From positions 1-61,021 of IMG/VR virus record IMGVR_UViG_3300007276_000003: DNA of 61,021 bases; one strand, given 5' to 3'. This stretch comes from a virus (lineage: Duplodnaviria > Caudoviricetes). Both the position numbers and the translations under genes were made by a program. Below the pieces are notes generated by a model, which worked only from the letters and a program-made list of their open reading frames with translations, was not told the origin of the DNA and made no database searches. Shown piece after piece: positions 3,407-49,936 of this stretch (positions are counted from its first letter, which is position 1; each line of letters opens with the position of its first letter).

Positions 3407-6400
3407 TTAATCAAACCCTCCTTCAAAACCTTTACTGTCAAAGGAGTTGTTTTTAAAACCTGCATTGTTAAATCCACCTGATGAATTAAAACCTGCAGCT
3501 TTCTTTTTATCTTCCCTAGCTTTCTTTTCTTTTTCTTTCTGAATCTTTTTATAGAAATCATCCATAGTTTGTTCAGATTTTCCTGAACCTTTTTTCTTAG
3601 GACCTTCTATTTGATAGTTAGAATAATTTAGTAATCTCATAATCATTTTTCCTAAGTCTACTTCATCACCCATCTTTGAATAGTTATCAAAAAACTTTGC
3701 TATAGTTGGCATTGGTAATCCTGTTAGGGTGGCTAGTTCTAGGTAAGCATCTCTATATGCTTTTGCTTTCTTCTCCTCATCCTTAAACTTACCTGCTCTC
3801 ATAAAGTCCTTAGCAATACCATTGGCAATTTGTATAATACCAACTGTCTTTGCTTGACTACCTGCCCAAGGCTTATCTTGGAATGCATCGGCTGCAGTTT
3901 GTACAACCTCACCAATTATAAATAAAGCATTGAGGTTACCAATAATTCCTGCTCTGTACAAATCTTCATCGTCATCATCTCTCCAACCTCTTAGTATTCC
4001 CGGTAATCCCATTGCTACATATTGGAATAGTGTAGGCATAAAAACGTGGTACATTATAAATGTTCTAATATTCTCCCCAAAGGTTCCTTTATAAGCCTGA
4101 CCTGACATTGCTCGGTACAAGTTTCTTACGGCTATTATTTCTTTTCTTAAATACTGCTTAGGTGTAGTTAAGAACATATTCATTGCTCTTGTTATTGGGT
4201 CACCTGTTTGTAGGTAATCCTTATCCTGTAAGTCACCTGACTGCTGAGTTCTTTTTGTATCTCTCTCAAACTTTCTAATAGCTATATCAATAGCCTCTTG
4301 CTCAGTCTTACCCTGCTTCAATGCTTGTGCTTTGTAATAAGAGTAGTTGGGTAAACCACCTAGCATAATTGCACCTCTATCACCAAGCTTTGTAGTATAC
4401 ATTGCAAAGTTTACCAACCAATCTTTTGTAGGTCTAGGAACAAACTCTTTCATCTTAGCATCAGTATAAGTTTCGATTGCTCTCATAATGCTTTGATTGT
4501 TTCTGTCTTTCATATAAACAGAATTTTCCGTAACCTCTTTCCAAACTTTTAGTTGTTGTGTTTTATTCTTCGCTGCATATAACAACCAATTCTTGATTCC
4601 AATATCATTAGCATATGTAAATGTAGACGTTAACTGCTTGATTGTAATTACAGGACTCAATGCAAGTCTAGATAGGATGAATACGTTATTCATTCCATTA
4701 ATAATTTTTGCTCTGATACCTGACTGCTGACCCTGAGAAGCTACCTTCTGAATCATATCTTTTACAAAGGTATATATCTCAGAACCGTGTATATCTGTTA
4801 TAGCACCTTTAACATACCTGTTAGTAAAGAACTTATCCATATCCCTTATGGTTTCTCCATAAGCTGCGAAGTATTCCATATCATTGATGTATGTGTTTAA
4901 TACATCCATCATATTCATAGCCTGAATAGGAAGATTACTATTTTGTCTAACCTTTGTAGCACCTGCACCTACTGCAGTCTTATACATATTACCCTGACCA
5001 AGTAAATTTATTACTTCAATCTCACTTTCAGGAACACCATCTCTGTATATAGTTCCTGCATAATACTTGTTCCAAGGAAGGTCAGTTCTATATAATTTCT
5101 TATACGTTTTATTATACTCCTCATATAGGGCAGGATATAATACTTCAACTTGCCAATCAGCAACCTCTTTTACTTTAGGGTCTAGCTTTGCTTCAAGTTC
5201 TTTCATTACTCTTGCAGCATTAGCTTCATTAGCTTTTTGCTTACGTTTCTTTTCTGCAGCAGTATCATCTTTATTGATTACCTCAACACCCCACATTTCG
5301 GGATTAGCAAATGATGACCTGTTAGCAGGGTCCTTATACATATTATAGAGGTATGCAATTTGGTCTTGACTAATTGGTTCAAGCATAATACCATCGTGTA
5401 ACTCAATACCTAAATCTTGTTGCATTCTATTATCTCTAGAAACTTTCTTCCATTTCTTTCCATATGTTTCATATAGATACCCTGCAATGATAGATTCAAC
5501 CTCCATCATTCTCATCTTAAATCTTCTAGAGGATTCATCTACTCTTTCGGTAAACATTTCATTTAGTCTACCACCAAACATTTCACCCGGAAGTTTATCT
5601 AATCTATCCATTAGACCATCCATAGCTTCAGCACTACCAAAAGTATAATTACCAAGCTTAGTAAACATATTAGAGAAGAATCTTCTTACTACATTTTGTG
5701 TAGCCTTCTTTCTTTTTTCATCTGCCTTCCTTTGTTTCTTTCTATTGTTAAGATTTGTCTTAGCATCAGGGTCAGACATATCAACTCTATCTCCTGTGAT
5801 AGCTTCATAACCTTTCTCAAACTGTTCGTTATAATATTGATGTTGTCTTAAAAGTTCTTCTTGAAGCAATGACCTACCAAATGTAATCATCTCTTCAAGT
5901 GTTGAATAGATACCATCTAACTCTGTAACCTTATTTGGATTAGAGTTCTCCATTAACATTGCATTGTTATACTGCATAGCTAATTGAAGGTCAACCATTT
6001 CTTCTCTTTGTTCTACAGTCTGCTGAGTTTCTTGAGCCAACTCATTAAACCTTTCTAGAAGTTTCATATTCACCTCACCTATTTGCTCGGCAGTAGCCTT
6101 TGGTCCAACAAGGTTTGACTTTATTTTATCTATTCTTTTTCTAACCTCATCAACAATCTTCTTTGGTTTTAATCTATTGTTTTCAACTGCTTGATACTTA
6201 CCATTAAGAACACCATCAATTTTTTTCTGAAGTGATTTAATGTTTGTTTCAATAACGAAGTCTGTTACTTCCTGAAGAATGTTTTCAATATTCTTTTCAG
6301 TAGCTTTATTTACTTTATCAATTAACTTTATTACATCACCTTTACGATATAATTCTTTAGGTAAAGATTTACGAATGAAGTTTCTTACTTCAGTCTTTAT

Positions 6401-9400
6401 CTTCTGTAAGTCTTTTGCACCCTTTCTTCTTTGACGTAAGAATAATCTAGCTTGAGCAATCTTTGTACCTAAATTTTGTGATGGTCTAATACCAATACTG
6501 CTTTGTAAATCACTAAGCATCTGTGCTTGTTGTGTAGATATACCTTTTGTTTTAGCATCAGCTTCAGCTATGTATTCTTTCTGCTGCTCTAAGAACTCAA
6601 TGGTCTTATCAAGTATCTGTTGTTCAGATAGTTTATTTTTTCTTTTGTTGTTACTCTTCTGAAGTTTCTTTCTGTAAGCATCTACCTTTTGATACAATGC
6701 CAACCCTACTTGAGCACCACCCTTGACGTTACCAAAACTCTTTGGCATTTGGTCAAACAAGTCTACATCTAAAGCCATCAATTGGTTTACAAGTTTTGCA
6801 GGAAACTTCTTAACTCTAACTAAGAAGTCTTTAATCACATCATCTCTAAAGTTATTTCTTCTAGCCTCTAAGATGTATGACTCAATATCTTTTTGTTGTC
6901 TGCCTTTATTCTTGTAAGGATTAATTTTATAACCTCTTGAATTTGTCAAGTAGTATGAACCACCTCTACCGTATTGGTCAACTCTAGATTGCTTTACACC
7001 AATACCCGGTGGTAAATCTTTTTTTAATCTATAGAGGTCAACTTGTTTTGGTAAGAAGCCATAGATATTCATACCATAGTATTGAGCAATTTGCTCAACC
7101 GACTTTTGTTGTCTACCCCTTGGTTTAGATTGTGTGTCATCTATTTTCTCAACGATAATACCTCTGTTACCAAAAGTATTTTTCTTGTATACATTTACTT
7201 TATCGCCAAGTAAATCTTGTACATACTCCACAAGTTCATTACCATCAAAACCTTTTTGGTACACATCCACTACCTCTCCACCTTTTTTTCTTTTGATGAT
7301 ATAGCTTTTATCTTCAGGACCCTTTTCAAAGTTCTTAGCATTTGCTATATCACCTTTGAATCCTCGTGAACTAATTACTGCAACACCACCCGGCTTTAGG
7401 TTTTCATATATATCTTCTACAATAAAATCTCGTACATCTTTTGGCACAACATTGAGTACATTTAATGATACAATAGCATCGTATTGTTTATTAATGTCAC
7501 TAGCCTTTGTATAGGTAACAGGTGTTTTACCCTTCCATCTTTCAGGGTTTAGTTCATATGAATCAACCTCAGTTCCTAATACCTGTGACATTGCATCAGT
7601 ACCAAGACCAAGACCTGCACCATAATCTAATACTTCACCTTCAATCTCAAGGTCATTAACTATGTTTGCAGCCTTAACATAACTACCTGTAGTTGTAGCT
7701 ACCTGCGTAGTTCCTGAAGACTTAGATAATGCCTTGTCTATTTTTTGTTGTCTTTGTTTTCTTGATGTAACTTTTTTAACTCCTGAACCATAAGGTGCTA
7801 CCTTTTGACTAGTAGTAGTTCTAGGTCTACCCTCCATTGAATCCCTCATTTCTTTAGGCATCAATTCAAATGCATCAATCTTAGTATCAGGGATACCAAC
7901 TACATCACCTAAAATATTATTGCTATAGGTTGAATGGTTAGAACCTTCCTGTACTCCTGTTGGTTTTAAGACCAACATAATATCGTTCTGTTTAAAATCA
8001 TTCTCTTTATAGAAACCATCTCTCATAGAGTTGGGGTCTATAAATCCATCTAAACTTTTAACTAGCTTATGATATTCTGTATTTGTAGTTTTTTCTTGAG
8101 CAATATGTGCAATCAAAAAGTTTTTTCTAACTGAACCATCAGCCTCTTTTATGGATTCCCAACTGTCATATTCTGTAAGTACATCCTTAACTCCCTTTAC
8201 GGGTTTAGTTTTTAATGCTTTCTTTTTAAAGGTGGCATAGTCCCCTAGTTTATTTGTATATGCATCATATACTTTTTTATTAAATAAGTGACTCTTTGTA
8301 GGTGAACCACTAATAATAAATATATAATCAGAGTTCTTTATATTCTTTTCTAGTTTAGCCACAGGAAAGCTACTTGCCCAAGCAACACCTTCTTGTTGTA
8401 AAGCATAACTTGGTCCTGCATCAATATCCATCTCGGCATCTAAACCTAGTTGGTCTGCCACCCAAAACCAAACCTTTTGGTCGTTCTCAGCTATCTCGTC
8501 TATCAATGCATCAATGTCAATTTTATTTGCAGAAGTGATTAATGATAGTGGATATGAATCTTTAAAGTTTAACTTCTGTTGTTTCCCTTTTGGTTTAACA
8601 ATGGTAGTTGGGTTACCTACAGGGTTTGTTCCATTATCTAGTTCCTCTAATGTAGCAATGTCAGACTCTTCAATAACCTCACCCTTTCTAGTTTTTCTTG
8701 ATATAACATTTAATAAGTCAATAACATCAGCATCTTTTGCACCAAAGTCATTCCCTATCTCAATACCAAATTTTCTTGCAATACTTTTTAAGAACTCTAC
8801 AATTACATTCTTAGATGGTTTATCAAGTTGTCTGTATTCAGATGAAAGTATACCAACTAACTCAGCTAGTCTTTCTTCATTTTGGAACTCACCTTCATAC
8901 CCTTGAGCAAATGCTTCAATTCTTTTTCCAAGTGCACTATCTTTTGGTACAACTTTTTGTACAGATAATACCATCTGTTCTGCTGCCCTTGCAATGGCAG
9001 GGTCAGTCTTAACCTTTTCCATTAAGACTGCGTGGAATATTTCGTGTGGTACTGTAGTTTTTGTAGCCTTGGATAGGTTGATATGAATAGTGGTATTATC
9101 AGGGTTATACTCTGCTCTACCATCACCAAGCTTTGCATATTTTAAATATTGCTCGTTAGTTTCGTGCATAACAATTCTAACATTAGGCAATACTTTTGAT
9201 ATAGCTTTTGCTCCAAGGTCAGCTATTTTAATTACACTACTTCTAAATGGATTAGTATTTTTAGAACCATCCTCACTTCTATTCAATGCAATGTTTTGTC
9301 CTTTAACCTCAGAACTATCTTCTGTTTCATTAAAGAATGAATCAATGTCGCTTTGCTCTTCCACAGTTACATTGCCCGGCTTGTTAACAGATTGATTGTC

Positions 9401-12106
9401 AACTACCTCACCATCTTGGAACTCATTAATTTTTTGTTCAGAAGTTTTATCTTGTTGTTGTTGCGTAGCAACTTCACCAACTAAAGATGATAACCTATCA
9501 TTAACTTTGTTTAATAACTCTTGCTTTGGTTTAGACAGTACATTGTCTTGAGTTTTAATTTCTGATTCAAGAGATTCTTTTTGAAAGATTAGTTGTAAAG
9601 CTTCTTTTCTTTGGTTAGTATTATATTCACTAGGTATTCTTGGTAGTATACCTTGTAATCTTTTTACTAAAGCTAATTCTTCTTGTGCTTCCCTTTTTGT
9701 TTTAGGGTCATTTGAATCAGCTATTTTTTGTTTGAGTTTGGTAACATACATCTTAGTGTAGTTCTCGTCTTTTGACATAGACTCAAACATTTCATATATC
9801 CTGTTGTCAAGCTTTTGTGCTTGTAATCCTGATACTGCATTGGCAACTGCACCCGGTGTACCTAATATGAAACCACCTACTGCCTCTTGCATACCTGCTC
9901 TGTTTACTTGAGCAATCCAATCCTGCCAAGTTTCAGGAGTTTGGAACATCTCCTTACCTTTGACATCATTGTAAATATCTTTTATAGTTATCTCTGCTGC
10001 TTCTTGTAATGCACCTGTTTCATATTCTGCCAAACCACCTGCACCAACAGTAAGCAATCCTCTTGCCATCATTGATTCTACATCTTGTCTGATAAATTCA
10101 CCAAATGATTTTGCAGTTGTATTTTTTGTAGACTTTTTTAATGCTCTACTAACTACGCTATTTAATAAACCCTTTTGACCAATTACGTTTCTAAAACCAA
10201 TTGCTTCTAGAGTACCTACTGCTACACCAATAGGAACGGCAACCATAGACTTTTCACTTTCAGTTACGTTATCGAAAGCTGCATTCTCTTCCATCTCCTC
10301 ATAAACGTGGTCTGTAACTTGTGCATACATCTGTGCAGTACGTTGTGCCCATCCTGCAGGACTAGAGCCACCTATCATAGCAGGTAGTGATTCTGTTAAT
10401 CCAAGTAATGCACCACCCCAAAATGATTCTTTTGCAGTATCACTCCATTGCTTAGTGGTATTGTCGCTACCTAATACTTCTCTCATCCCTCTACGACCTG
10501 CATCTAACATTCCTAATGTTACATCAGTTCCTTGAGCAGTTGCAGAGAATGGGTTTCTATATCTACCTTCTACTGCTTGGTCATAAGATTCAAATTCTTT
10601 GATTCCCTTACGAGCCAAGTCCATAACCTTTGCGTTTGCTTTATCAAACTCAGTTTCTTCAACTATAGGTATATTAAAAGCACTCGAACCTATTCTAGTA
10701 GCCATTGCTCCTTGTAGAATTTTTTCTCCAAGAAACTTCATATCGTTAGAATCACCACCAAGTTCTTCTATCAATTGTTCTTTACTTAGGTCATACACAC
10801 TTGGTAAAGTTTCTAGTGGTATCATTTTAGGTGTTCCTAACTCAGGGTCTAACACCTCTATCATACCATCTTTTACCCTACCTTCAGGATAAGTTTCTCT
10901 AAACTTACCCTCTTCAAATGAACCATTTTCTAATGCAACTCTAGCTATCTCTTCTTTATAATTCTTTTCACCCATACCTCTATTAGGTGTAAAGTAAGTA
11001 GCAGCATCAGTCATAGTATTCATTGCCGTAGTTCCAAATCTAGCAGCACCATCTAACAATGCATTAACAAATGCACCACCCGGTGCACCTTGTTCAGAAG
11101 CCATCTCATAATACTCACCTGCCATTTGGTCAAGCTTCTGTCCCTTTCTCTCAAAGTCTTTGTTTTGTTTTTTTAAATCTTCTAAAACTTTATTAGAAGC
11201 TTCTTTCGCTGAAACCCATTTGTCAAAGTTGGCTTTTAAAACAGGGTCAGCATTCAACTGTGCCTTAGTTACATTAGCAAAGTTTTTTTTGTATAGAAGG
11301 TCTAGTTTGTTTTTGTATAAAGCATACTGTTTTAAATTTGACTCAAACTCTTTTGATTCTTGATTAAAAGCTTTTACTGTATTAATAATCTGCTTTTCAT
11401 TATCTATCTTCCTTTTGTTTTCAATGATAGCAGTAGATTCGTCTATGATGACTTGGTTCTCTGCTTTATTTTCTCTTAGGAATTTTTGCAAAGCTTCAGC
11501 CTCACCTTTCTCTCCCCAAAAAGGGTCAAGGTTGGTATAGTGTTCGTTGCCATTTGCAGCCTTAACTTTCATACCATCACCTATCCCTGTTTCAGCAAAG
11601 GTGAATCCGTAATCATTAAATTGGTAGTTAAGTTTTGGAACTACATACTCTTCCTCATAATCTATAAGGTCTTTGTTAACACCTGCCATTGACTCTTCAA
11701 AAAAGTCAGCAGGTTGCTCGTCTAAAAGAGTACCATCATAAGGATTTTTTTCAACTATCGGAGTACCATCTTCCGATAAAGAGTCTGATTCGGGAGAAGG
11801 AGCAAAGGATTCCGGAGTATTCGGAAGTGCGAACTCTTCGGATACCAAACTTTCGGGTTCGTCTTTTTTTTTTACTTGCTCTACTGCTTCATCAACCAAC
11901 GTATCTCCACCTACGGCTCCACCAAAACCAACGAGAGTTTTGAATTGTTCCACATCTTTTGAGTAGCCATCACTTTGAGCAAGACCATACATAGTAGTTA
12001 ATGCCTTCTCATCTTCACTTAAAAGCTTTTTAAAATCATCAAATGTTTTACTATAGCCATCACCTTGTGCAAGTACATATAGTTGTTGTAATGCTTTTTC
12101 GTTCAT
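3407..12106 (-). CDS. Giant polyvalent putative ejection/internal virion protein with zincin metallopeptidase and SAM-dependent methyltransferase domains
   Basis: 2899 aa; HEIFH at 9032-9046; MTase motifs VLDYGAGLG, YDAIVSLNVLNVV, LKPGG; last large gene of the structural operon. Confidence 0.75.
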   Translation of the reverse strand: MNEKALQQLYVLAQGDGYSKTFDDFKKLLSEDEKALTTMYGLAQSDGYSKDVEQFKTLVGFGGAVGGDTLVDEAVEQVKKKDEPESLVSEEFALPNTPESFAPSPESDSLSEDGTPIVEKNPYDGTLLDEQPADFFEESMAGVNKDLIDYEEEYVVPKLNYQFNDYGFTFAETGIGDGMKVKAANGNEHYTNLDPFWGEKGEAEALQKFLRENKAENQVIIDESTAIIENKRKIDNEKQIINTVKAFNQESKEFESNLKQYALYKNKLDLLYKKNFANVTKAQLNADPVLKANFDKWVSAKEASNKVLEDLKKQNKDFERKGQKLDQMAGEYYEMASEQGAPGGAFVNALLDGAARFGTTAMNTMTDAATYFTPNRGMGEKNYKEEIARVALENGSFEEGKFRETYPEGRVKDGMIEVLDPELGTPKMIPLETLPSVYDLSKEQLIEELGGDSNDMKFLGEKILQGAMATRIGSSAFNIPIVEETEFDKANAKVMDLARKGIKEFESYDQAVEGRYRNPFSATAQGTDVTLGMLDAGRRGMREVLGSDNTTKQWSDTAKESFWGGALLGLTESLPAMIGGSSPAGWAQRTAQMYAQVTDHVYEEMEENAAFDNVTESEKSMVAVPIGVAVGTLEAIGFRNVIGQKGLLNSVVSRALKKSTKNTTAKSFGEFIRQDVESMMARGLLTVGAGGLAEYETGALQEAAEITIKDIYNDVKGKEMFQTPETWQDWIAQVNRAGMQEAVGGFILGTPGAVANAVSGLQAQKLDNRIYEMFESMSKDENYTKMYVTKLKQKIADSNDPKTKREAQEELALVKRLQGILPRIPSEYNTNQRKEALQLIFQKESLESEIKTQDNVLSKPKQELLNKVNDRLSSLVGEVATQQQQDKTSEQKINEFQDGEVVDNQSVNKPGNVTVEEQSDIDSFFNETEDSSEVKGQNIALNRSEDGSKNTNPFRSSVIKIADLGAKAISKVLPNVRIVMHETNEQYLKYAKLGDGRAEYNPDNTTIHINLSKATKTTVPHEIFHAVLMEKVKTDPAIARAAEQMVLSVQKVVPKDSALGKRIEAFAQGYEGEFQNEERLAELVGILSSEYRQLDKPSKNVIVEFLKSIARKFGIEIGNDFGAKDADVIDLLNVISRKTRKGEVIEESDIATLEELDNGTNPVGNPTTIVKPKGKQQKLNFKDSYPLSLITSANKIDIDALIDEIAENDQKVWFWVADQLGLDAEMDIDAGPSYALQQEGVAWASSFPVAKLEKNIKNSDYIFIISGSPTKSHLFNKKVYDAYTNKLGDYATFKKKALKTKPVKGVKDVLTEYDSWESIKEADGSVRKNFLIAHIAQEKTTNTEYHKLVKSLDGFIDPNSMRDGFYKENDFKQNDIMLVLKPTGVQEGSNHSTYSNNILGDVVGIPDTKIDAFELMPKEMRDSMEGRPRTTTSQKVAPYGSGVKKVTSRKQRQQKIDKALSKSSGTTQVATTTGSYVKAANIVNDLEIEGEVLDYGAGLGLGTDAMSQVLGTEVDSYELNPERWKGKTPVTYTKASDINKQYDAIVSLNVLNVVPKDVRDFIVEDIYENLKPGGVAVISSRGFKGDIANAKNFEKGPEDKSYIIKRKKGGEVVDVYQKGFDGNELVEYVQDLLGDKVNVYKKNTFGNRGIIVEKIDDTQSKPRGRQQKSVEQIAQYYGMNIYGFLPKQVDLYRLKKDLPPGIGVKQSRVDQYGRGGSYYLTNSRGYKINPYKNKGRQQKDIESYILEARRNNFRDDVIKDFLVRVKKFPAKLVNQLMALDVDLFDQMPKSFGNVKGGAQVGLALYQKVDAYRKKLQKSNNKRKNKLSEQQILDKTIEFLEQQKEYIAEADAKTKGISTQQAQMLSDLQSSIGIRPSQNLGTKIAQARLFLRQRRKGAKDLQKIKTEVRNFIRKSLPKELYRKGDVIKLIDKVNKATEKNIENILQEVTDFVIETNIKSLQKKIDGVLNGKYQAVENNRLKPKKIVDEVRKRIDKIKSNLVGPKATAEQIGEVNMKLLERFNELAQETQQTVEQREEMVDLQLAMQYNNAMLMENSNPNKVTELDGIYSTLEEMITFGRSLLQEELLRQHQYYNEQFEKGYEAITGDRVDMSDPDAKTNLNNRKKQRKADEKRKKATQNVVRRFFSNMFTKLGNYTFGSAEAMDGLMDRLDKLPGEMFGGRLNEMFTERVDESSRRFKMRMMEVESIIAGYLYETYGKKWKKVSRDNRMQQDLGIELHDGIMLEPISQDQIAYLYNMYKDPANRSSFANPEMWGVEVINKDDTAAEKKRKQKANEANAARVMKELEAKLDPKVKEVADWQVEVLYPALYEEYNKTYKKLYRTDLPWNKYYAGTIYRDGVPESEIEVINLLGQGNMYKTAVGAGATKVRQNSNLPIQAMNMMDVLNTYINDMEYFAAYGETIRDMDKFFTNRYVKGAITDIHGSEIYTFVKDMIQKVASQGQQSGIRAKIINGMNNVFILSRLALSPVITIKQLTSTFTYANDIGIKNWLLYAAKNKTQQLKVWKEVTENSVYMKDRNNQSIMRAIETYTDAKMKEFVPRPTKDWLVNFAMYTTKLGDRGAIMLGGLPNYSYYKAQALKQGKTEQEAIDIAIRKFERDTKRTQQSGDLQDKDYLQTGDPITRAMNMFLTTPKQYLRKEIIAVRNLYRAMSGQAYKGTFGENIRTFIMYHVFMPTLFQYVAMGLPGILRGWRDDDDEDLYRAGIIGNLNALFIIGEVVQTAADAFQDKPWAGSQAKTVGIIQIANGIAKDFMRAGKFKDEEKKAKAYRDAYLELATLTGLPMPTIAKFFDNYSKMGDEVDLGKMIMRLLNYSNYQIEGPKKKGSGKSEQTMDDFYKKIQKEKEKKAREDKKKAAGFNSSGGFNNAGFKNNSFDSKGFEGGFD

Positions 12107-15289: not shown

Positions 15290-16111
15290 TTAAGGGAATG
15301 ATTTCATTACTTCACTTTCAACTGCAAACAGTTCTACTTTACTAGTATTGTTATTGATTAAGCTAAATACTGCATAATGTCCCAATATTCCGTGAGATTC
15401 TGCAACCGAACTTTTTATGTATAAAATATATTCTGTTTGTGTTGGTGGAACTTGAGCACCACCTATAAGAGTATTTACTATAATTTCATTAACACCATTA
15501 GGCAAATCAATATTTACAGATACAATTTGACCCATTAATTGTGGTGTAGTTCCAAAGTAAAGCATATCACCTATACTTATAATACTACCAATAGATACAC
15601 TAGTAGAAAATCTAACTAAATTTTGTCCTGCTTGTGGTGTATCAATAAGAATGTTTGAACTTGTAGCAATGCCATTTAATGAACGTAATGCATATTGATT
15701 TGCATTTGCAGGACTAGCAAGTGTTTGACCGGAGTTTCTTATAAAAGCAAAATAAGCTTGTTCTTTTTTCTCATAATAATCTGCATCTATAAACCCTGTG
15801 TCTTGTAAATCACTTTTAACTGTAGTTGTCCAAGAATCATCTCCTTCAAGATTCATAGTTTTAAATAATTTATTTTCTAAAGGTTGCTCATTAAAAACAG
15901 ACTCAACCTTAGAAGGATAATTAACACCATAGTATTGGTTTCTAGTTTCGTTAGTATTGTGACGAAAAACATTACCCCCTTTGAACGTATAAAAATAATT
16001 GTTCATACCTATCATCCAATCAGGATTATAGGAATAAAAAGATGGAAATCCTTTTACACCACTATCATAACTTAGTGTATAATTTACATTTTTATCTACT
16101 TGATTACTCAT
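15290..16111 (-). CDS. Tail structural protein
   Basis: Beta-rich protein in the tail module. Confidence 0.55.
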   Translation of the reverse strand: MSNQVDKNVNYTLSYDSGVKGFPSFYSYNPDWMIGMNNYFYTFKGGNVFRHNTNETRNQYYGVNYPSKVESVFNEQPLENKLFKTMNLEGDDSWTTTVKSDLQDTGFIDADYYEKKEQAYFAFIRNSGQTLASPANANQYALRSLNGIATSSNILIDTPQAGQNLVRFSTSVSIGSIISIGDMLYFGTTPQLMGQIVSVNIDLPNGVNEIIVNTLIGGAQVPPTQTEYILYIKSSVAESHGILGHYAVFSLINNNTSKVELFAVESEVMKSFP

Positions 16112-23971: not shown

Positions 23972-24724
23972 CTAATCTAATAAAGATTCTAAGTGTTGTA
24001 GAACCTCAACCCCATCATCTGATTGCATATATTGACAAACTATATCAAGAGCCTCTTCTCCAAACGGTACATTAAGCAATTTGGTTTTATTAGATGCAGT
24101 ATTAAACCATACCTCTTTCCCACTTTTTCTATAGCCTAAAAGTCCATTGTCAAAGAATCTCTGTACAGTTCCCATAAGTTTTAAATCAGGGTCTTTAATT
24201 ACATCTAAGAAATCTGAAGGATTGGTTTTAGCATAAACTAAAATATCTCTTTTCATCTCTGCAGTAGAAACTTTAGATGTATCAGTATTAAATAGTACTC
24301 TACATACATTTTCTAGCTGCTCTAATGATAGTTTTTTAGCTTCAACTAATGCATCAGCTTCAACCAAAAGTGCATCTACTTCTGCTGCTGCATCTTTGCT
24401 TTCGTCAATCTCAGTAAATGTTTTACCATTTAAAGTATGATAGTGTAAAAACTTTTGTAGTATTTGATTTTCTTTAGGTACATATAAAAAACCATCTTCA
24501 AAAATAATTGGTTCTAGAACCACATTTTTATCTTGCTCATCTCTGAAACAAGAGTTTTGGTTTCTTGCATATCTAAGTTCACGGTTCTCACCTGTGCTCT
24601 CATCAAAATGTAATAAAGGAAATCTTCTTGAATGTTTTGTTGGTAGCATATAAGTGAGAGGTGCTACTCCTCTTGTTAGCTTGTAGCTTTTGTCTACAAA
24701 CTTTTGTTGCTTATTTTTTTTCAT
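23972..24724 (-). CDS. Hypothetical protein downstream of the capsid gene
   Basis: 250-aa ORF. Confidence 0.6.
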   Translation of the reverse strand: MKKNKQQKFVDKSYKLTRGVAPLTYMLPTKHSRRFPLLHFDESTGENRELRYARNQNSCFRDEQDKNVVLEPIIFEDGFLYVPKENQILQKFLHYHTLNGKTFTEIDESKDAAAEVDALLVEADALVEAKKLSLEQLENVCRVLFNTDTSKVSTAEMKRDILVYAKTNPSDFLDVIKDPDLKLMGTVQRFFDNGLLGYRKSGKEVWFNTASNKTKLLNVPFGEEALDIVCQYMQSDDGVEVLQHLESLLD

Positions 24725-32445: not shown

Positions 32446-33018
32446 CTACTCATTTTTATAAAACATTACATAGACTATTCTGCCTTCTTGCCAACTTTCA
32501 TTTGGATATTTACTATGAAAATAATTACAAGGATAAGATATAAGTCTATTAGGTTTGTATCCCACAACACTTTTTAAATTCCATTTACTTAAATCATTTG
32601 AATCTTCTTTTAATATACTATCAAACTCTTCATCCGAAATATTGCTTGGCATAGTTTCACCCATAGTTGAATGCTCCCAAAAAGCAGTTCCGTGTAATTC
32701 TTTCATAGTTGACTTTGATAAATAAAGTACTAATGCTCTATCAGGTTTTTCATTATTAATAATTGTATCTGCGTGAATCCTCCAATCTTTATCTACTTCA
32801 TTGTTAGATATTCTAAAAAAACTTAATATCTTTCTTATTGGTTTATTTTCTGCAACAGACAATTCAAAAGATACAATATCATCAAAAGATTCAGAACTAT
32901 CCCAAACCCAAAAACTTTTATCACCTGTGTCAACTTCTCTATAATCTGTTGAATTTAAATAATCCATTAACTGATTATATACATTGTCACTTAAAAAATT
33001 ATCTTTTATATAAATCAT
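32446..33018 (-). CDS. 2OG-Fe(II) oxygenase superfamily protein
   Basis: IHAD (HxD), VLYLS, GTAF, NRL...FHS, distal R. Confidence 0.8.
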   Translation of the reverse strand: MIYIKDNFLSDNVYNQLMDYLNSTDYREVDTGDKSFWVWDSSESFDDIVSFELSVAENKPIRKILSFFRISNNEVDKDWRIHADTIINNEKPDRALVLYLSKSTMKELHGTAFWEHSTMGETMPSNISDEEFDSILKEDSNDLSKWNLKSVVGYKPNRLISYPCNYFHSKYPNESWQEGRIVYVMFYKNE

Positions 33019-33578
33019 AGAACCATTGTTATTTGGTGGTCATACATTCTATATAATTTTTCTCCATCAACATTAAACTCATATTCAGAGTCAGGTTTAA
33101 ATGAAACTCTATCTCCTTGACTAATGCCTTTACTCATTAAATAATTATTAGGATATTTCATTTCACCCACTAATGGCTCTTCTTTTGTATTTTTATAAAT
33201 ATACGAATCTTCTTTTGATACGGGTTTTACAAAACAATACCTATCAACTGCATTCCATTGTATACCATTATGATACATATAAAACTGTTCAGGTTCTACA
33301 AAAAATAAATCATCTTTAAAAAAGCTTCTACCACTTCTTTGTCTACCCTTCATATCATTGTAGTACTTAAAAACATTATGATGTACTAACAAAAAATCTC
33401 CCACCTTTATTGGACCTTTATATCCAAGGGGGAGTTCTATAACTTCAGCTTTACGATTTGAAAATCTAGCATCTTCCAAAGAAGTGCTTACGATAAAATC
33501 TATTCCACCAATACTTTTAGTATTATTATACCTTTTACCCTTTACAGGTTTGGTAATAAATGCAAACGGTGATTTCAT
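33015..33578 (-). CDS. Tandem GroES-like fold protein
   Basis: IKVGDFLLV and GISQGDRVSF...VDGEKLYRM...I resemble GroES strands. Confidence 0.55.
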   Translation of the reverse strand: MKSPFAFITKPVKGKRYNNTKSIGGIDFIVSTSLEDARFSNRKAEVIELPLGYKGPIKVGDFLLVHHNVFKYYNDMKGRQRSGRSFFKDDLFFVEPEQFYMYHNGIQWNAVDRYCFVKPVSKEDSYIYKNTKEEPLVGEMKYPNNYLMSKGISQGDRVSFKPDSEYEFNVDGEKLYRMYDHQITMVL

Positions 33579-34000: not shown

Positions 34001-36165
34001 TACGTTAATTTATGAATAGCAATCCACGAACTTGGTGCATCAGGCATAGTTGCTACACCTGTTGATGTTGGTTTTGCTACTGTTTGTTGAGTAGACGTTG
34101 TTGCGAGTAACTGCATTCTGACATTATCAACTACAGTATTTACAGGGAAACTAACTTCCCAACCTGAAGGTACTGTATCATTTATTTGGTGAATCCAAGT
34201 TTGTAAATAAGGAGTACCACCTAGTGTTGCAGTAAAAGCAGCGTATTGATTTATAGAATCATTATTAGTCATATTAACACCCATATTAACAATGTAATTT
34301 CCGGGGACATTAAATATAACATCTCCTGAGGCAGTTATTGTGACTTCAGAAGTTGTTTGTCCTTTACCAAAAACTATTATCGTTTGTACTCCCCGTGCAA
34401 TTAATTGATTAGCCGTTTCACTATCTTCAATAACCTTATTCATCTGAAAAGGTGTACTGTTAACTGTAACTGCACCTATACCTGAAGGGGGACTAATACT
34501 TACATTTGTTCCCGGAACAATTTGAGTTACTCCTCCACCTCCTGAAGAAACTTCCCATTGTGTTTGAACCTCTGAACCATTAATACTTTTAACTGCTAAT
34601 ACTTGAGATTGTAGAGTTGGTAATGTTTCAGGTAAAATTATTTCTTGTTTTACACCCTGAGCAGGAGCCAATAAAGTCATTGTTTCAGGACTACCTTTTC
34701 CTGCACCTGTTTCTAGTTCAATCTTACCACCTAAATTTACACCATCTCCTTCAATCCTTAAACACCCTTCTTGGCTTGTTGGAGCAGCAGATTTACCCAA
34801 TGTTAGTTTAGCAGAACTTGAATCAAAAGTTAATCCTACATAAGCACCAAATGAACCATTATCATTAAATTGAATTTGTGTGTTAGAACCTGCAGGACTT
34901 CCTGTTCCACCTGCAAAATTAATTATAGTTGGACTACTAGAATTATCCATAGTAACACCTGAACCTGTAAACTCAAACAATCCTGATTCTGTAGTATTGC
35001 CAACCTTAATGCTATTTACTGTAGGAGATGTTTGAGCACTTATAGTTAAAGTTTTAACACCCTGTGCATCAGTATTTACTGAACCTGATAGACCTGAACC
35101 TATTGTTACTTTTTCACTCCAATATCCTGATTGAGTATCTGCTGCATCATATTTGAATTTATCATCAGCACCTCCACCACCTGATGGGGTATCTATCCAA
35201 TTTAATTGACCGTTACCATCGTTTTCTAAAATTTGTTGTGCTCCACCCTGCTTTGTTGGAAAGTGTATATAATAATCACTACTTGCATTTGCCTCAGTAG
35301 AACCTGCTAAGTGTACATAATTACCTGCTCGATGTTCTAATGCTGCATTACCATAATTAATAGCATCACCTAGACCATAAGTATCGAGAGTTACCTGACC
35401 GGCTTTCTCTTTTCCACCAAGAGTATGTTCTGAAAAATTAGTACCCAATACATAAGTATTGTATTGATTCCCTTCAAACACACCACCTGTTCCGTGATAC
35501 TGAACATCTTGAGGTGCACCTCCCGGTGTACCACCACCACCTGATGCTACAACTTCAATTTGTTCATTTCCACCTGCATTTACTTTAGTTAGGGTAATAT
35601 TAGCACCTGCAACTAATTTATTTTCTAAAAAATCAGTTGTTGTATCTGCTGATGATATTTTTACTTTTTCATCAGAGCCACCACCACTTCCATTGGAAGC
35701 TGCAGTAATAATACCTTGGTCATTAACAGTTATGTCAGCATTGGTATAAGAACCTGATACTGCTTGATTATTTAAGTTAAATTCAAAAGTACCGGGGGTA
35801 CTTCCTTGAATAACTAAATCATTAGACTTAAATGTTAATTGGTTTTGGGTTTCATCTATGGATTCGGTTAAACCTGAATTACCTGTTACATCAAATTTAC
35901 TTAATCCACCACCACCAATAGCTGAACCATCAATAGTTATGTCAGTACCGGAAGCACTAATAGTAATGCCTCCTGTACCTAGTAAAGTAAGTTCTCCTGT
36001 TAGTGTGTTTAAAGATTGCACAGAACTACCACCTCCCGGAACCAATGCAATAATATCACCAATAGTATAGTTTTGAGTTAAGTTGGCATCATCTACGTTA
36101 GTACCAATAACTTTATCCTCTAGGGTTGGTTGTGCATCAATTGCATAGGTTTTAATTCGTGCCAT
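34000..36165 (-). CDS. Tail fibre protein
   Basis: Gly/Thr/Ser-rich, with fibre repeats (VQSLN, ITVNDQGIITAAS) and a beta-rich tip. Confidence 0.75.
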   Translation of the reverse strand: MARIKTYAIDAQPTLEDKVIGTNVDDANLTQNYTIGDIIALVPGGGSSVQSLNTLTGELTLLGTGGITISASGTDITIDGSAIGGGGLSKFDVTGNSGLTESIDETQNQLTFKSNDLVIQGSTPGTFEFNLNNQAVSGSYTNADITVNDQGIITAASNGSGGGSDEKVKISSADTTTDFLENKLVAGANITLTKVNAGGNEQIEVVASGGGGTPGGAPQDVQYHGTGGVFEGNQYNTYVLGTNFSEHTLGGKEKAGQVTLDTYGLGDAINYGNAALEHRAGNYVHLAGSTEANASSDYYIHFPTKQGGAQQILENDGNGQLNWIDTPSGGGGADDKFKYDAADTQSGYWSEKVTIGSGLSGSVNTDAQGVKTLTISAQTSPTVNSIKVGNTTESGLFEFTGSGVTMDNSSSPTIINFAGGTGSPAGSNTQIQFNDNGSFGAYVGLTFDSSSAKLTLGKSAAPTSQEGCLRIEGDGVNLGGKIELETGAGKGSPETMTLLAPAQGVKQEIILPETLPTLQSQVLAVKSINGSEVQTQWEVSSGGGGVTQIVPGTNVSISPPSGIGAVTVNSTPFQMNKVIEDSETANQLIARGVQTIIVFGKGQTTSEVTITASGDVIFNVPGNYIVNMGVNMTNNDSINQYAAFTATLGGTPYLQTWIHQINDTVPSGWEVSFPVNTVVDNVRMQLLATTSTQQTVAKPTSTGVATMPDAPSSWIAIHKLT

Positions 36166-36179
36166 ATTTTCTGTTCTAG

Positions 36180-36428
36180 TTATTCAACTTTTTCAAGTTC
36201 TTTCTTTTTTATTTCTCCTGTCTTAACATCTATCTGAGCATCGACTCCATATTTGTCAGACAACTTTTTTTCTACTGCTGCGTAGTCTACTTTAAGTTCA
36301 TCAATCTTTTTAATGATTGTAACTTTTTGCAATTCAGCATCACCTAGTTGCATTTTTAATTGATTAAAAGCATTCAGCATAGTTTGTACTGAAGTCAGTT
36401 CATCTTTAGTTAATTTCTTTTTTGCCAT
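36180..36428 (-). CDS. Small coiled-coil protein (possible fibre chaperone)
   Basis: Coiled coil plus KYG...IDVKTGEI; lies among fibre genes. Confidence 0.5.
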   Translation of the reverse strand: MAKKKLTKDELTSVQTMLNAFNQLKMQLGDAELQKVTIIKKIDELKVDYAAVEKKLSDKYGVDAQIDVKTGEIKKKELEKVE

Positions 36429-36461
36429 TTTAATAAAATTTAATTATGATTTATATAATTA

Positions 36462-36469
36462 CAAAGATA
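36462..36469 (-). promoter_or_regulatory. Bacteroidota-type -7 element
   Basis: TATCTTTG upstream of 36428. Confidence 0.55.
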
Positions 36470-36482
36470 GTAAAATTTTCAT

Positions 36483-38267
36483 TTACCCCTCGCATAGCAT
36501 AACCGAGAATTGACGACCATCGGCAAGAGTAAAAGTTGCACATCTTGTTTTGCCGGTATCTACGTCTACCCTTTGTATAGTTGTGTCTTTGCCACCATCA
36601 ATACTTACAGGAAATTGTGGTCCTGTTGGTCCCGTTGGTCCTTCCGGTCCTGTTGGTCCTTGTGGACCTGTAGCACCTGTGTTACCTTTAGCACCTGCAG
36701 GTCCTTGTGGACCTGTAGCACCCGTAGAACCCGTTGCTCCTTTTGGACCTTCAGGTCCTTGTGGTCCAACACCTCCTGTACTACCTGTATCTCCTTTAGG
36801 TCCTTGCGACCCTGTATCTCCTTTAGGTCCCTCATCTCCTTGGTCACCTTTCGGACCTTGGGGTCCAACACCTCCTGTTGACCCTGTATCACCTTTAGGT
36901 CCCTGTGGACCTACTCCTCCGGTTGCACCGGTATCTCCCTTAGGTCCTTGTGGTCCAACACCACCGGTATCTCCGGTTTTCCCTTGTGGTCCTTCCGGTC
37001 CTTCAGGTCCTTGTGGACCCGTACTTCCGGTATCTCCCTTAGGACCTTCCGGTCCTGTTGCTCCAATATCTCCTTTTGCTCCCTGTGGTCCGGTGGCTCC
37101 TGTGTCCCCTGTTTTACCCTGTGGTCCCTCAGGTCCCTCCGGTCCTTGAGGTCCGGTACTTCCGGTATCCCCTTTTGCTCCTTGAGGTCCGGTACTTCCG
37201 GTATCTCCTTTTGCTCCTTGAGGACCTTGTGGTCCTGTCAAACCTATATCACCTTGAGGTCCTTTTGGTCCCTCCGGTCCGGTACTACCTGTATCTCCTT
37301 TTGGACCTTGAGGTCCCGTAGCACCTGTATCACCTGTATCTCCTTTCGGACCTTGTGGACCCTCCGGTCCTTCAGGTCCCGTAGCACCTGTATTTCCTTT
37401 TGAACCTGTATCTCCTTTTGGACCTTGAGGTCCTGTAGAACCCGTGTCACCTTTTGCACCTGCCGGACCTTGTGGTCCAATAGGTCCCGTAGCACCTGTG
37501 TCACCGGTCTTACCCTGAGGACCTTCCGGTCCCTCAGGACCTGTTGCTCCTGTGTCGCCCTTAACTCCTTGAGGACCTTGAGAACCTGTATCCCCCTTTG
37601 GACCTTGAGAACCTGTATCCCCCTTTGGTCCTTCAGGACCTTCCGGTCCTTGTGGTCCTTCAGGACCCGTTGGTCCTGTAGCACCTGTATTTCCTGTTTT
37701 TCCTTGAGGACCTTCATCACCTTGGTCGCCCTTTGGACCTTGAGGACCTGTTGCTCCCGTTAATCCAATGGGTCCTTGAGCACCGGTATCTCCCTTTACT
37801 CCTTGGTCACCTTGCTTACCTTGAGGACCTTCAGGACCTGTTGGTCCTGTAGCACCGGTATCTCCCTTATCACCCTTACCTCCCTGAGGTCCTTGAGGAC
37901 CTTCGGGACCTTCGGGACCTTCGGGACCGGTCAATCCTATTGGTCCTTGTGGACCCGTTGAACCGGTGTCACCTTTGTCACCTTTATCTCCTGTTTTTCC
38001 TTGTGGACCTTGTGGACCGGTTGCTCCCGTTAAACCAATAGGACCCTGAGGTCCTGTTGCTCCGGTATCACCCGTATCACCTTTCGGACCCTGAGGTCCG
38101 GTATTAGTTGGCATAGTAACTGAGTTACCATCACTAATACTAAGTGTTTGTCCGTTAACTGTTAATGATTGTTTTGGGATAAAAGCACCGGTATCCAAAC
38201 TCACCCCATCAACTTTTATGTCGGTAGAAACTGAGATAGGTTCCTTAAACTCAATGTATGATGCCAT
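36483..38267 (-). CDS. Collagen-like (Gly-X-Y) fibre protein
   Basis: About 495 aa of G-X-Y triplets (GPQ, GPK, GPE, GDT, GAT). Confidence 0.92.
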
Positions 38268-49003: not shown

Positions 49004-49936
49004 ATGAAAAATCAAAATGACATTTACTCTAGGATTAATGACCTAGTAATCGAGGGACTAACCAAGGAAGGTATGCAATGGTTCAAGCCTTGGAAAGGTG
49101 GACAAGAGAACGCACCTTTTAACCTGCACACTAAGAGATATTACAACGGGTTTAACATCTTTATGTTGAACTTTGTAATGAGAAGCGAAGGTTACGAGCA
49201 TAACCAATGGATGACCTTTAAGCAAATCTCTGAGAAGGGTGGCAAGGTTATCAAAGGTAGCAAGTCAACAGAAGTTTACTTTTGGCAGATAGGTTACTTC
49301 GACAACAAGACAGGTAAATTTGTTCCTGCTAAACTTATCAAGACTATTAATGTTTCAGAGCAATTTGAAGGTAAGGATAGATACAGAAAAACATTTTCTG
49401 TAAGGTTTTACAAAGTGTTCAACGTAGCACAGACTGAAGGCATTGAGCCAATGGTTAAAGAAGAGGTTGTAACTGATGTAGTTAATGAGCCTAATGAAGT
49501 TGCTGAGGCTCTAGTAAAAAGCTATGTAGAAAAGCAAAACGGATTTAAGATTATGCACAGAGAGAACTCTGCATACTACTCACCTACTAGAGATATAGTT
49601 AATATGCCAATGCTAGAAACATTTGTTGATGCTGATAGCTACTACAAGACTTTGTTTCACGAGTTAGCACATAGTACAGGTCACAAGTCAAGATTGAATC
49701 GTAAGTCAATGACTGAGATTTCACATTGGGGTGACAATACCTATGCTAAGGAAGAGTTAGTTGCTGAGATTAGTTCTTGGTACTTAGTCGGTCTGTTAGG
49801 ACTTAATCCACAGGACAATGAAGTTAACTCTCAAGCCTATATCAAAGGGTGGTGCAAGAGTCTTAAAGATAAGCCTAGCGAATGTGTGTTTGCTATGCAA
49901 CAAGCAACCAAGGTTGTAGACTACCTTCAGCAGTAG
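49004..49936 (+). CDS. ardC: ArdC-like antirestriction protein (ssDNA-binding domain plus zincin metallopeptidase)
   Basis: WFKPW, YNGFN, WMTFKQ, VFNVAQ, AYYSP, HELAHSTGH, YAKEELVAE. Confidence 0.9.
   Translation: MKNQNDIYSRINDLVIEGLTKEGMQWFKPWKGGQENAPFNLHTKRYYNGFNIFMLNFVMRSEGYEHNQWMTFKQISEKGGKVIKGSKSTEVYFWQIGYFDNKTGKFVPAKLIKTINVSEQFEGKDRYRKTFSVRFYKVFNVAQTEGIEPMVKEEVVTDVVNEPNEVAEALVKSYVEKQNGFKIMHRENSAYYSPTRDIVNMPMLETFVDADSYYKTLFHELAHSTGHKSRLNRKSMTEISHWGDNTYAKEELVAEISSWYLVGLLGLNPQDNEVNSQAYIKGWCKSLKDKPSECVFAMQQATKVVDYLQQ

Follow-up and report, generated by a model that had tools for sequence, protein, structure and literature searches.

Polyvalent proteins of phages are giant multidomain polypeptides which combine a zincin-like HExxH domain with effector domains. 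The metallopeptidases (MPTases) of this class have been proposed to process the polyvalent proteins in which they reside, with autoproteolytic release of domains (Iyer, Burroughs, Anand, de Souza, and Aravind, 2017; PMC5512222). The available text of that paper lacks the word "linker" and has "cleavage site" in its reference list only, and thus appears to name no site. MPTase-bearing proteins delivered with DNA include DdrB/DarB of phage P1, the N4 vRNAP, ArdC and TraC1; packaging of DdrB is preceded by its processing to a 76-kDa product, the N4 vRNAP, ArdC and TraC1 are transferred full-length, and no recurring site between cassettes is reported for any of them in the text available (PMC5512222). 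This article describes P0001, a giant protein of 2899 amino acids (aa) encoded by an open reading frame (ORF) at 3407..12106 (minus strand) of a complete, 61,021-bp viral record bearing direct terminal repeats (IMG/VR record IMGVR_UViG_3300007276_000003), which was analyzed over its whole length and is referred to here as the window. P0001 comprises a zincin-like domain, a conserved module B, a class I methyltransferase (MTase), a small module D and two large end regions. The main subject is a short basic-glutamine motif, KQQK or RQQK, which separates these parts and marks the positions at which modules are gained and lost among homologues, and which is considered as a candidate site of processing by the embedded zincin.

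Two other phage systems are close to P0001. In crAss001 the cargo proteins are encoded after the muzzle gene, stored in the capsid and the tail, and ejected; gp45-gp50, which resemble P0001 in being large proteins encoded in this position, leave ahead of the DNA (Bayfield et al., 2023; PMC10172136). The text available for crAss001 contains no mention of proteolysis, cleavage, protease or peptidase. The second system is gp47 of phi24B, a 2811-aa virion protein with LPD5, LPD1 and LPD38 domains and a MuF-C metallopeptidase. It is a giant polyvalent protein like P0001, was detected in virions by proteomics and is a proposed ejection protein; its peptidase is assigned a role at the cell wall, and the accessible part of the preprint reports no processing of gp47 (10.64898/2026.04.10.717836).

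Junction motifs and modules of P0001

P0001 contains exactly four copies of [RK]QQK, all encoded on the minus strand. Motif 1 is KQQK at aa 1175-1178 (8573..8584), located between the zincin-like module A and module B, after a conserved G.PT.I..P sequence, and homologues have an equivalent site. The other three are RQQK and occur between module B and the MTase (motif 2, aa 1452-1455; 7742..7753), between the MTase and module D (motif 3, aa 1665-1668; 7103..7114) and between module D and the C-terminal part of the protein (motif 4, aa 1736-1739; 6890..6901). A previous reading of the DNA letters by themselves (hereafter the sequence-only reading) had located these four sites, and the HEIFH string at aa 1021, at the same positions, its five-residue coordinates taking in the G or Q before each site. 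The junction sites account for all four [RK]QQ strings of P0001 and for four of its five QQK strings, and each copy is preceded by a basic stretch (KPKG-, SRKQ-, KPRG-, and KNKG-). Shuffling of P0001 (5000 times) gave a mean of 0.12 [RK]QQK per protein, four copies being reached in 0/5000 shuffles, and the mean for shuffled aa 1100-1800 alone was 0.024; these figures argue against chance as the origin of the motifs. A repeat at the DNA level was set aside as an explanation, since the copies vary at synonymous positions (the four window copies use differing Gly and Lys codons), and so was an AT-hook-like DNA-binding linker, the motifs being devoid of the AT-hook core, which is R-G-R-P.

Elsewhere in the window, among ORFs of at least 80 aa, [RK]QQ[KR] occurs once, as KQQK at aa 5-8 of the ORF at 23972-24724. 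This copy (24701-24712, minus strand) belongs to the sequence MKKNKQQKF, with which a 250-aa protein begins whose gene adjoins a likely capsid gene; one such occurrence is about the chance level predicted by a rough composition estimate.

The modules bracketed by the motifs measure 273, 209, and 67 aa, in good agreement with the ~270, ~205, and ~65 aa of the sequence-only reading, and the middle one is indeed an MTase by Pfam and by fold. Module A (aa 940-1174; 8585..9289, minus strand, as for all the modules of P0001) has its folded part at about aa 955-1137 and includes HEIFH (aa 1021-1025; 9032..9046, minus strand), the sole HExxH of the protein. Module B (aa 1179-1451, 273 aa; 7754..8572) is the most conserved part of P0001, with the strings WFWVADQLG, DAGPS, ISGSP, and NHSTY. 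It belongs to no Pfam family; comparison with a protein atlas returned unnamed viral clusters only (0.89), and its fold gave PUA-like matches, PH1033 and YTH, whose Z of 5.5-6.0 is insufficient to assign a fold. Module C (aa 1456-1664, 209 aa; 7115..7741), a swappable cassette, is by sequence and predicted fold a class I S-adenosylmethionine (SAM)-dependent MTase: Pfam Methyltransf_23 covers aa 1489-1580 (28.8 bits against a cut-off of 27), and the top Foldseek matches are small-molecule and N-methyltransferases (E 2.4e-8, probability 1.00). Module D (aa 1669-1735, 67 aa; 6902..7102) is small and basic; at E<=1 Pfam gave no match for module B, module D, or the zincin segment.

Structure models (AlphaFold/AF2) were obtained for aa 940-1456 with an alignment of 28 homologues (model 1) and for aa 1440-1900 with an alignment of 27 (model 2), with mean predicted local distance difference test scores (pLDDT) of 76 and 80, respectively. 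In model 2 the pLDDT falls below 50 at three places only, aa 1440-1452, 1658-1666 (model residues 219-227), and 1734-1738 (model residues 295-299), which correspond to motifs 2, 3, and 4. Model 1 has a low-confidence stretch at aa 1138-1160, a confidently modeled module B, and a disordered tail at aa 1440-1456 (pLDDT <50) that contains RQQK 1452. Motifs 2-4 are therefore found in dips of low pLDDT which separate confident domains.

The end regions of P0001 are large and differ in charge. The N-terminal region (aa 1-939; 9290..12106, minus strand), whose modules N1 and N2 are present in most of the 120 homologues examined (see below), is acidic, with a net charge of about -51 over aa 1-959, and has a hydrophobic stretch at aa 620-638. 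Two tandem repeats of ~30 aa (EKAL..Y.LAQ.DGYSK..F..L) at aa 4-59 (about 11930-12097, minus strand) are kept in the homologue consensus and could represent a packaging or docking signal. The C-terminal part (module E, aa 1740-2899; 3410..6889, minus strand) is conserved, has a basic and mostly helical start, and contains a hydrophobic stretch at aa 2721-2739.

Cassette exchange and concerted change among homologues

A search with aa 960-1800 of P0001 retrieved 701 giant proteins at E<=0.001, the best 120 of which were examined. Module-wise BLAST distinguished 19 architectures among them, with module B present in 107/120, the MTase in 24/120, and module D in 41/120, independently of one another. 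The module alignments extend to the motif-defined ends, and the residues left between neighboring modules are the motif or a variant of it. R.Q/KQQ was found inside a 15-aa window at 275 of the 341 distinct module boundaries (3.9% in random windows), and [RK]QQ[KR] at 165/341 (0.78% in random windows); according to a hand count, RQ[SRN]K variants (RQSK, RQRK, RQNK) and motifs clipped by the edge of the 15-aa interval account for about 30 of the 66 misses. Between the zincin and module E of 111 homologues, 170 strict motifs were seen and 2.3 were expected. The internal end-points of BLAST high-scoring segment pairs lie at most 8 aa from a motif in 59/180 cases (7.7% expected); as these end-points are blurred by gapped extension, the module-wise boundaries were relied on instead. 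Thus, among the best 120 of the 701 giant homologues, domains are gained or lost exactly at motif copies, and the proposal of the sequence-only reading that the motif is a cassette-junction signal stands.

Like other phage-type polyvalent proteins, the homologues of P0001 carry ART-PolyVal, LPD23, LPD38, GNAT, and DUF3293/SAM-lyase-like domains. The foreign cassettes (ART, GNAT, LPD23) are flanked by a motif copy on each side. In P0025, seven RKQK sites separate module B, an ART-PolyVal domain (30.3 bits, just below the cut-off of 31.2), a 17-aa spacer, a 179-aa segment, module D, and a GNAT domain, and cassettes between motif copies occur likewise in P0008, P0040, P0088, and others. LPD23 is present in P0008, P0029, P0038, and P0081 and LPD38 in P0121; P0001 contains none of these. 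In P0130, a fragment of the family, aa 453-523 constitute a DUF3293/SAM-lyase-like cassette (E 1.8e-15 and 1e-5), likely an anti-restriction module by its sequence. Module B follows the zincin nearly always and at a fixed spacing; in 22/24 shorter proteins, HExxH precedes the start of B by 133-175 aa.

Some homologues carry tandem sites 2-17 residues apart (P0105, P0109, and P0110, with KRQQKIERQQR; P0008, aa 1565-1581 and 1911-1930; P0025, aa 1699-1723); these may be slots whose cassettes were lost, or spacer peptides. Additional RQQK copies were observed in P0084, P0091, and P0093 upstream of the zincin, about 78 aa before HExxH (NLSINRQQKD, where P0001 has NRSED), and in P0045 at aa 2505, ahead of a C-terminal low-complexity tail; these copies hint at additional cuts in the lineages concerned.

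An independent sample was assembled from metagenome contigs searched with free-standing module B only, from which 80 of 134 confirmed loci were taken in (5 free-standing B and 75 larger ORFs with B, most of them >2000 aa). An identical string of at least four residues was present on both flanks of module B in 15/61 distinct giant ORFs (0.6% in the control), and one of at least three residues in 33/61 (8% in the control). The strings are lineage-specific (NIERFQ, IQDRD, IKAQK in three copies, ERKKQ, PKPRQ, PRQRK, KPQKGRQQK), and further variants of the site according to lineage include RKQK (seven copies), REQK, RGQR, and ERFQ. The site varies between lineages, yet several junctions of one protein shift in unison. 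The core common to the family is [RK]-x-Q (a basic residue, any residue, and Gln), so that (R/K)QQK, taken as the signal in the sequence-only reading, holds for P0001 and has to be relaxed for the wider family. In 13/15 genes checked, the motif copies of the same gene show synonymous differences, which argues that the peptide and not the DNA is conserved while the junctions of one protein change together.

The modules also occur on their own. Six free-standing B proteins (281-299 aa) align from aa 1178/1185 to 1446/1450 of P0001, and free-standing MTases (205-217 aa) from aa 1456/1464 to 1630/1655, in both cases without the motif; since the ends of these proteins match the motif-defined borders, the modules can be regarded as autonomous units. 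One free-standing B protein (284 aa; 4965-5819, plus strand, of the 74.7-kb contig L023) is encoded among small early-type genes with no adjoining zincin, so module B may act alone in some phages. A search of viral contigs with free-standing module B returned a family member only. In proteins that have neither module A nor module B, R.Q/KQQ was found at 3/57 boundaries of the MTase module, and the three are apparent fragments of family members; hence, the motif is tied to the polyprotein context and not to the module. Taken as sequence evidence, the concerted variation by lineage, the synonymous codon differences, and the termini of free-standing homologues lend indirect support to cleavage at the motifs.

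The candidate protease and competing explanations

The H, E, and H residues of HExxH do not vary in two alignments, of 52 and 29 sequences, the latter having H981, H1021, E1022, H1025, E1077, E1078, and E1082 as the invariant residues of the zincin. In model 1, a helix-and-strand domain surrounds HEIFH, which is located within predicted helix 79-93, and E1077, E1078, and E1082, on a downstream helix, are candidates for the third zinc ligand of a gluzincin-type site. The best VIA-align match of this domain is the Pro-Pro endopeptidase PPEP-2 (6fpc; Z 6.9, root-mean-square deviation 4.1, 142 aligned residues), and further matches include lethal factor and collagenases (Z 5.4-5.8). The model of the zincin plus module B matched the MuF-C protein of phi191, a phage related to phi24B, in BFVD (E 2.3e-3), and a phmmer search of PDB sequences with the zincin segment gave no meaningful match. 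On the basis of sequence and model, module A is called zincin-like with moderate confidence.

All family members examined have the zincin. The window encodes a second protein of this kind, with ArdC-N and MPTase-PolyVal domains (310 aa; 49004..49936, plus strand; E 9e-26 and 6e-33, the MPTase-PolyVal match having 114 bits), located among plus-strand early and replication genes. One close relative also has this ArdC-like gene. It is lacking in 2/2 complete genomes of relatives, and in one of these, the record containing L012, the giant protein has four RQQK sites. Besides the ArdC-like MPTase, Pfam recognized no protease among 45 window ORFs of at least 100 aa. As the zincin is always present, no other protease was recognized among these ORFs, and the ArdC-like gene is missing from both complete relatives, the embedded zincin is the simplest candidate for the protease acting on the sites. 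A complex model of the zincin (aa 949-1164, with Zn) and the linker between modules C and D (aa 1646-1687) scored 0.26, the mark being 0.32, and carries no weight either way.

The following mechanism is proposed. P0001 would serve a crAss-like marine podophage as a polyvalent polyprotein of the cargo type, in which conserved ends (aa 1-939 and 1740-2899) lie on either side of a zincin-like protease, its constant partner B, and variable effector cassettes, which in the window phage would be the SAM MTase and the 67-aa module D. The basic-Gln site at each junction (core [RK]-x-Q in the family, KQQK/RQQK here) would be a proteolytic processing site, and a phage-encoded protease, most likely the HEIFH zincin, would cut while the virion is being assembled, once it is assembled, or after ejection. 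The full-length protein (~320 kDa) would then yield products of about 129 kDa (N-terminal region plus zincin), 31 kDa (B), 23 kDa (MTase), 8 kDa (D), and 128 kDa (C-terminal part). The location of the sites in linkers would also allow cassettes to be exchanged there without damage. A site which occurs at all the junctions, is located in linkers, is conserved as a peptide, and changes in concert, in a protein with an invariant HExxH, is the pattern expected of processing by a co-evolving protease, and it is considered rather probable that the motifs are processing sites cut by the embedded zincin. The more general proposal, according to which a large family of marine and freshwater podophages carries its ejected effectors as one self-processing polyprotein, with zincin and site co-evolving and site-bounded cassettes inserted or lost through recombination in the linkers and released separately, is given an even chance of being correct.

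Three other explanations have been weighed. The linkers may remain uncut, in which case the basic-Gln strings would contact packaged DNA, the portal, or the tail channel, or would pace unfolding and threading at ejection. The motifs are basic and located in flexible linkers, the N4 vRNAP and ArdC are delivered uncut despite their MPTase (PMC5512222), and the cargo of crAss001 is thought to traverse the tail partly unfolded, in a paper whose available text is silent on proteolysis (PMC10172136). However, generic binding predicts neither an exact lineage-specific string at each junction (NIERFQ, IQDRD, IKAQK) with a conserved Gln, nor tandem sites 2-17 aa apart, nor free-standing homologues ending at the motif-defined borders, and linkers that stay intact are held to be unlikely. 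It has also been considered that the motifs are mere recombination scars or DNA-level junction signals (microhomology) without a function in the protein, an explanation which accounts for cassette exchange exactly at the motifs and for the identical 27-nt direct repeats around module B in two genes (L078 and L080). It leaves aside that 13/15 genes keep the peptide while their copies differ synonymously and that the four window copies use different Gly and Lys codons; moreover, the flanks which change in concert include those of the constant module B and not just of an inserted cassette, and the same MTase module occurs in other proteins without the motif. An origin as scars is thus viewed as highly improbable.

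The third explanation accepts cleavage and assigns it to another protease, either from the host, the ArdC-like MPTase (49004-49936, plus strand), or an unrecognized virion protease, leaving the zincin to act on targets such as peptidoglycan or host proteins. The link between the HEIFH domain and the sites is indirect, the genome does encode a second zincin, and the preprint on phi24B proposes a cell-wall role for the metallopeptidase of a giant protein (10.64898/2026.04.10.717836, in the part accessible). Against these points, the ArdC-like gene is missing from both complete relatives, one with four RQQK in its giant protein; a host protease would leave unexplained why the site shifts between lineages at all the junctions of a protein simultaneously; within the genome the site is nearly confined to P0001; and the zincin accompanies the sites in every family member examined, with no further protease recognized by Pfam among the 45 window ORFs scanned. 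Cleavage by a different protease is accordingly rated as distinctly unlikely, more so than uncut linkers and less so than scars.

Cleavage by the embedded zincin, the preferred explanation, also has to be confronted with a number of observations that weigh against it. The sequence-only reading placed each motif in a basic linker, and while a basic stretch is present at all four and motifs 2-4 fall between AlphaFold domains, in low-pLDDT linkers, motif 1 (KQQK 1175; model 1 residues 236-239) is in a segment modeled at a pLDDT of about 89, hence ordered, beside module B and about 15 residues past the dip at aa 1138-1160. The zincin protease of the same reading finds moderate support in the invariant HExxH and the zincin-like fold match with PPEP-2 and none in Pfam, MPTase-PolyVal (PF18818) giving no match with P0001 at E<=0.1 or with aa 950-1173 at E<=1. 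The fold matches of the domain are of middling quality (Z 6.9; Foldseek E 0.087 at best), and a Foldseek search of the PDB with the zincin plus B model gave weak zincin matches, the best at E 0.087, and no match at E<=0.001. Outside the region between zincin and module E, strict motifs in the same proteins number 9 and 12.1 were expected; this is no depletion and gives no sign of site avoidance. Some lineages are devoid of [RK]-x-Q at the junction of A and B (the P0087 type has SQKGEAIEF), and no clear repeated motif was found in three distant relatives, the 3667-aa protein of the Elemo phages, gp74 of Gundel_1, and gp40 of CRP-738, so the grammar belongs to the P0001 family and not to polyvalent proteins generally. 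The identical 27-nt direct repeats (KPQKGRQQK) on both flanks of module B in L078 and L080 would also fit homogenization at the DNA level. Since the MPTase-bearing N4 vRNAP, ArdC, and TraC1 are delivered unprocessed according to the available text (PMC5512222), the presence of an MPTase does not imply processing. Finally, cleavage is inferred from sequence patterns, and the identity of the protease, the timing of cleavage, and the functions of the modules are likewise putative; so is an action at DNA entry, as proposed in the sequence-only reading. Packaging and ejection of P0001 are deduced from gene order and from the "structural protein" labels of its relatives; the expression "mass spectrometry" is absent from the available text of Bartlau et al. 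(PMC8776804).

Genome setting and comparison with known systems

The P0001 gene is the last gene of the virion module and closes a minus-strand run that includes the large terminase, the portal, several "virion structural proteins," and a protein with a muzzle C-terminal domain. The latter (273 aa; 15290..16111, minus strand) matches Pfam PF25729 (crAss_MUZ_C) with 63.9 bits and is encoded four genes upstream of the giant ORF. The likeness to the Crassvirus muzzle is confined to this C-terminal domain, the full muzzle protein of crAss001 being far larger, and suggests that this 61-kb marine phage has a tail of the crAss type. The location of the P0001 gene after the muzzle-domain gene is the position of the cargo genes in crAss001, which gives context support for P0001 as virion cargo.

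Relatives of P0001 in isolated phages correspond to pieces of it, with no full-length counterpart. The zincin matches a 3667-aa "structural protein" of Flavobacterium Elemo phages, the C-terminal part shares 22% identity over aa 1861-2834 with a "structural protein" of Tenacibaculum phage Gundel_1 (E 2e-27), and the MTase matches proteins of Roseobacter, Microcystis, and Mycobacterium phages. Judged from these relatives, a flavobacterial host is likely for the window phage. The chaperonin cpn10 counts among the core genes of the flavobacterial "Pervagoviridae" (Bartlau et al.; PMC8776804). The window encodes a GroEL (Cpn60, PHROG E 1e-138) at 46324-47904 (minus strand) and a GroES-like co-chaperonin at 33015-33578 (minus strand). 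A collagen-repeat, tail-fiber-like protein is encoded at 36483-38267 (minus strand; Pfam Collagen, 239 bits), and a GC spike coincides with this gene (48% at 36001-38000, about 33% elsewhere).

In BFVD, the P0001 model has as its structural neighbors giant proteins from uncultured phages, Elemo phages, and crAss-like phages. The match with the crAss-like "structural protein" is weak (E 0.016), and the likeness to gp45-gp50 of crAss001 is one of gene order. The cargo of crAss001 is spread over several genes, as described in the text available (PMC10172136), whereas in the window phage a single ORF would be cut into pieces. Compared with the polyvalent proteins of Iyer et al. (2017), the P0001 family has a zincin without a Pfam MPTase-PolyVal match and a repeated junction motif that co-varies within each protein. 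The polyvalent class and the idea of self-processing were already known; what is new, as far as could be found, is a co-varying junction grammar that bounds swappable cassettes. No published description of such a motif in phage polyvalent proteins was found in a search that left subscription journals and supplementary files outside its scope. In the literature found, as far as its text was available, the 2017 proposal of zincin-released domains comes with no named site and no test for phage cargo proteins.

With exact candidate sites, natural lineage variants, and the constant partner B, self-processing becomes directly testable, and module B, strongly conserved, without a family, and also free-standing, is a target of interest in itself. 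If the proposal is true, it would provide the first defined cleavage grammar for polyvalent proteins, and the sites would allow the effector repertoire of uncultured phages to be read from sequence. A simple rule would split thousands of giant "hypothetical" phage proteins into working units and lead to a catalog of anti-defense cassettes (MTase, ART, GNAT, SAM-lyase-like, LPDs) together with an account of their exchange.

The logic of the proposed system has counterparts outside DNA phages. MARTX toxins contain an embedded cysteine protease domain and multiple effectors, undergo self-processing, and have effector modules that are shuffled between strains, while the 3C/3CL proteases of RNA viruses cut their polyproteins after Gln. 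By analogy, P0001 would share with both the embedding of a protease in a single translation product, a short site in each linker, and swappable modules. It differs from them in protease class, which here is a zincin, in the absence of any sequence relationship, in its biological setting, and in that cleavage is putative; if it does occur, the P0001 family would represent, among DNA phages, the equivalent of polyprotein processing in RNA viruses and of the MARTX toxins.

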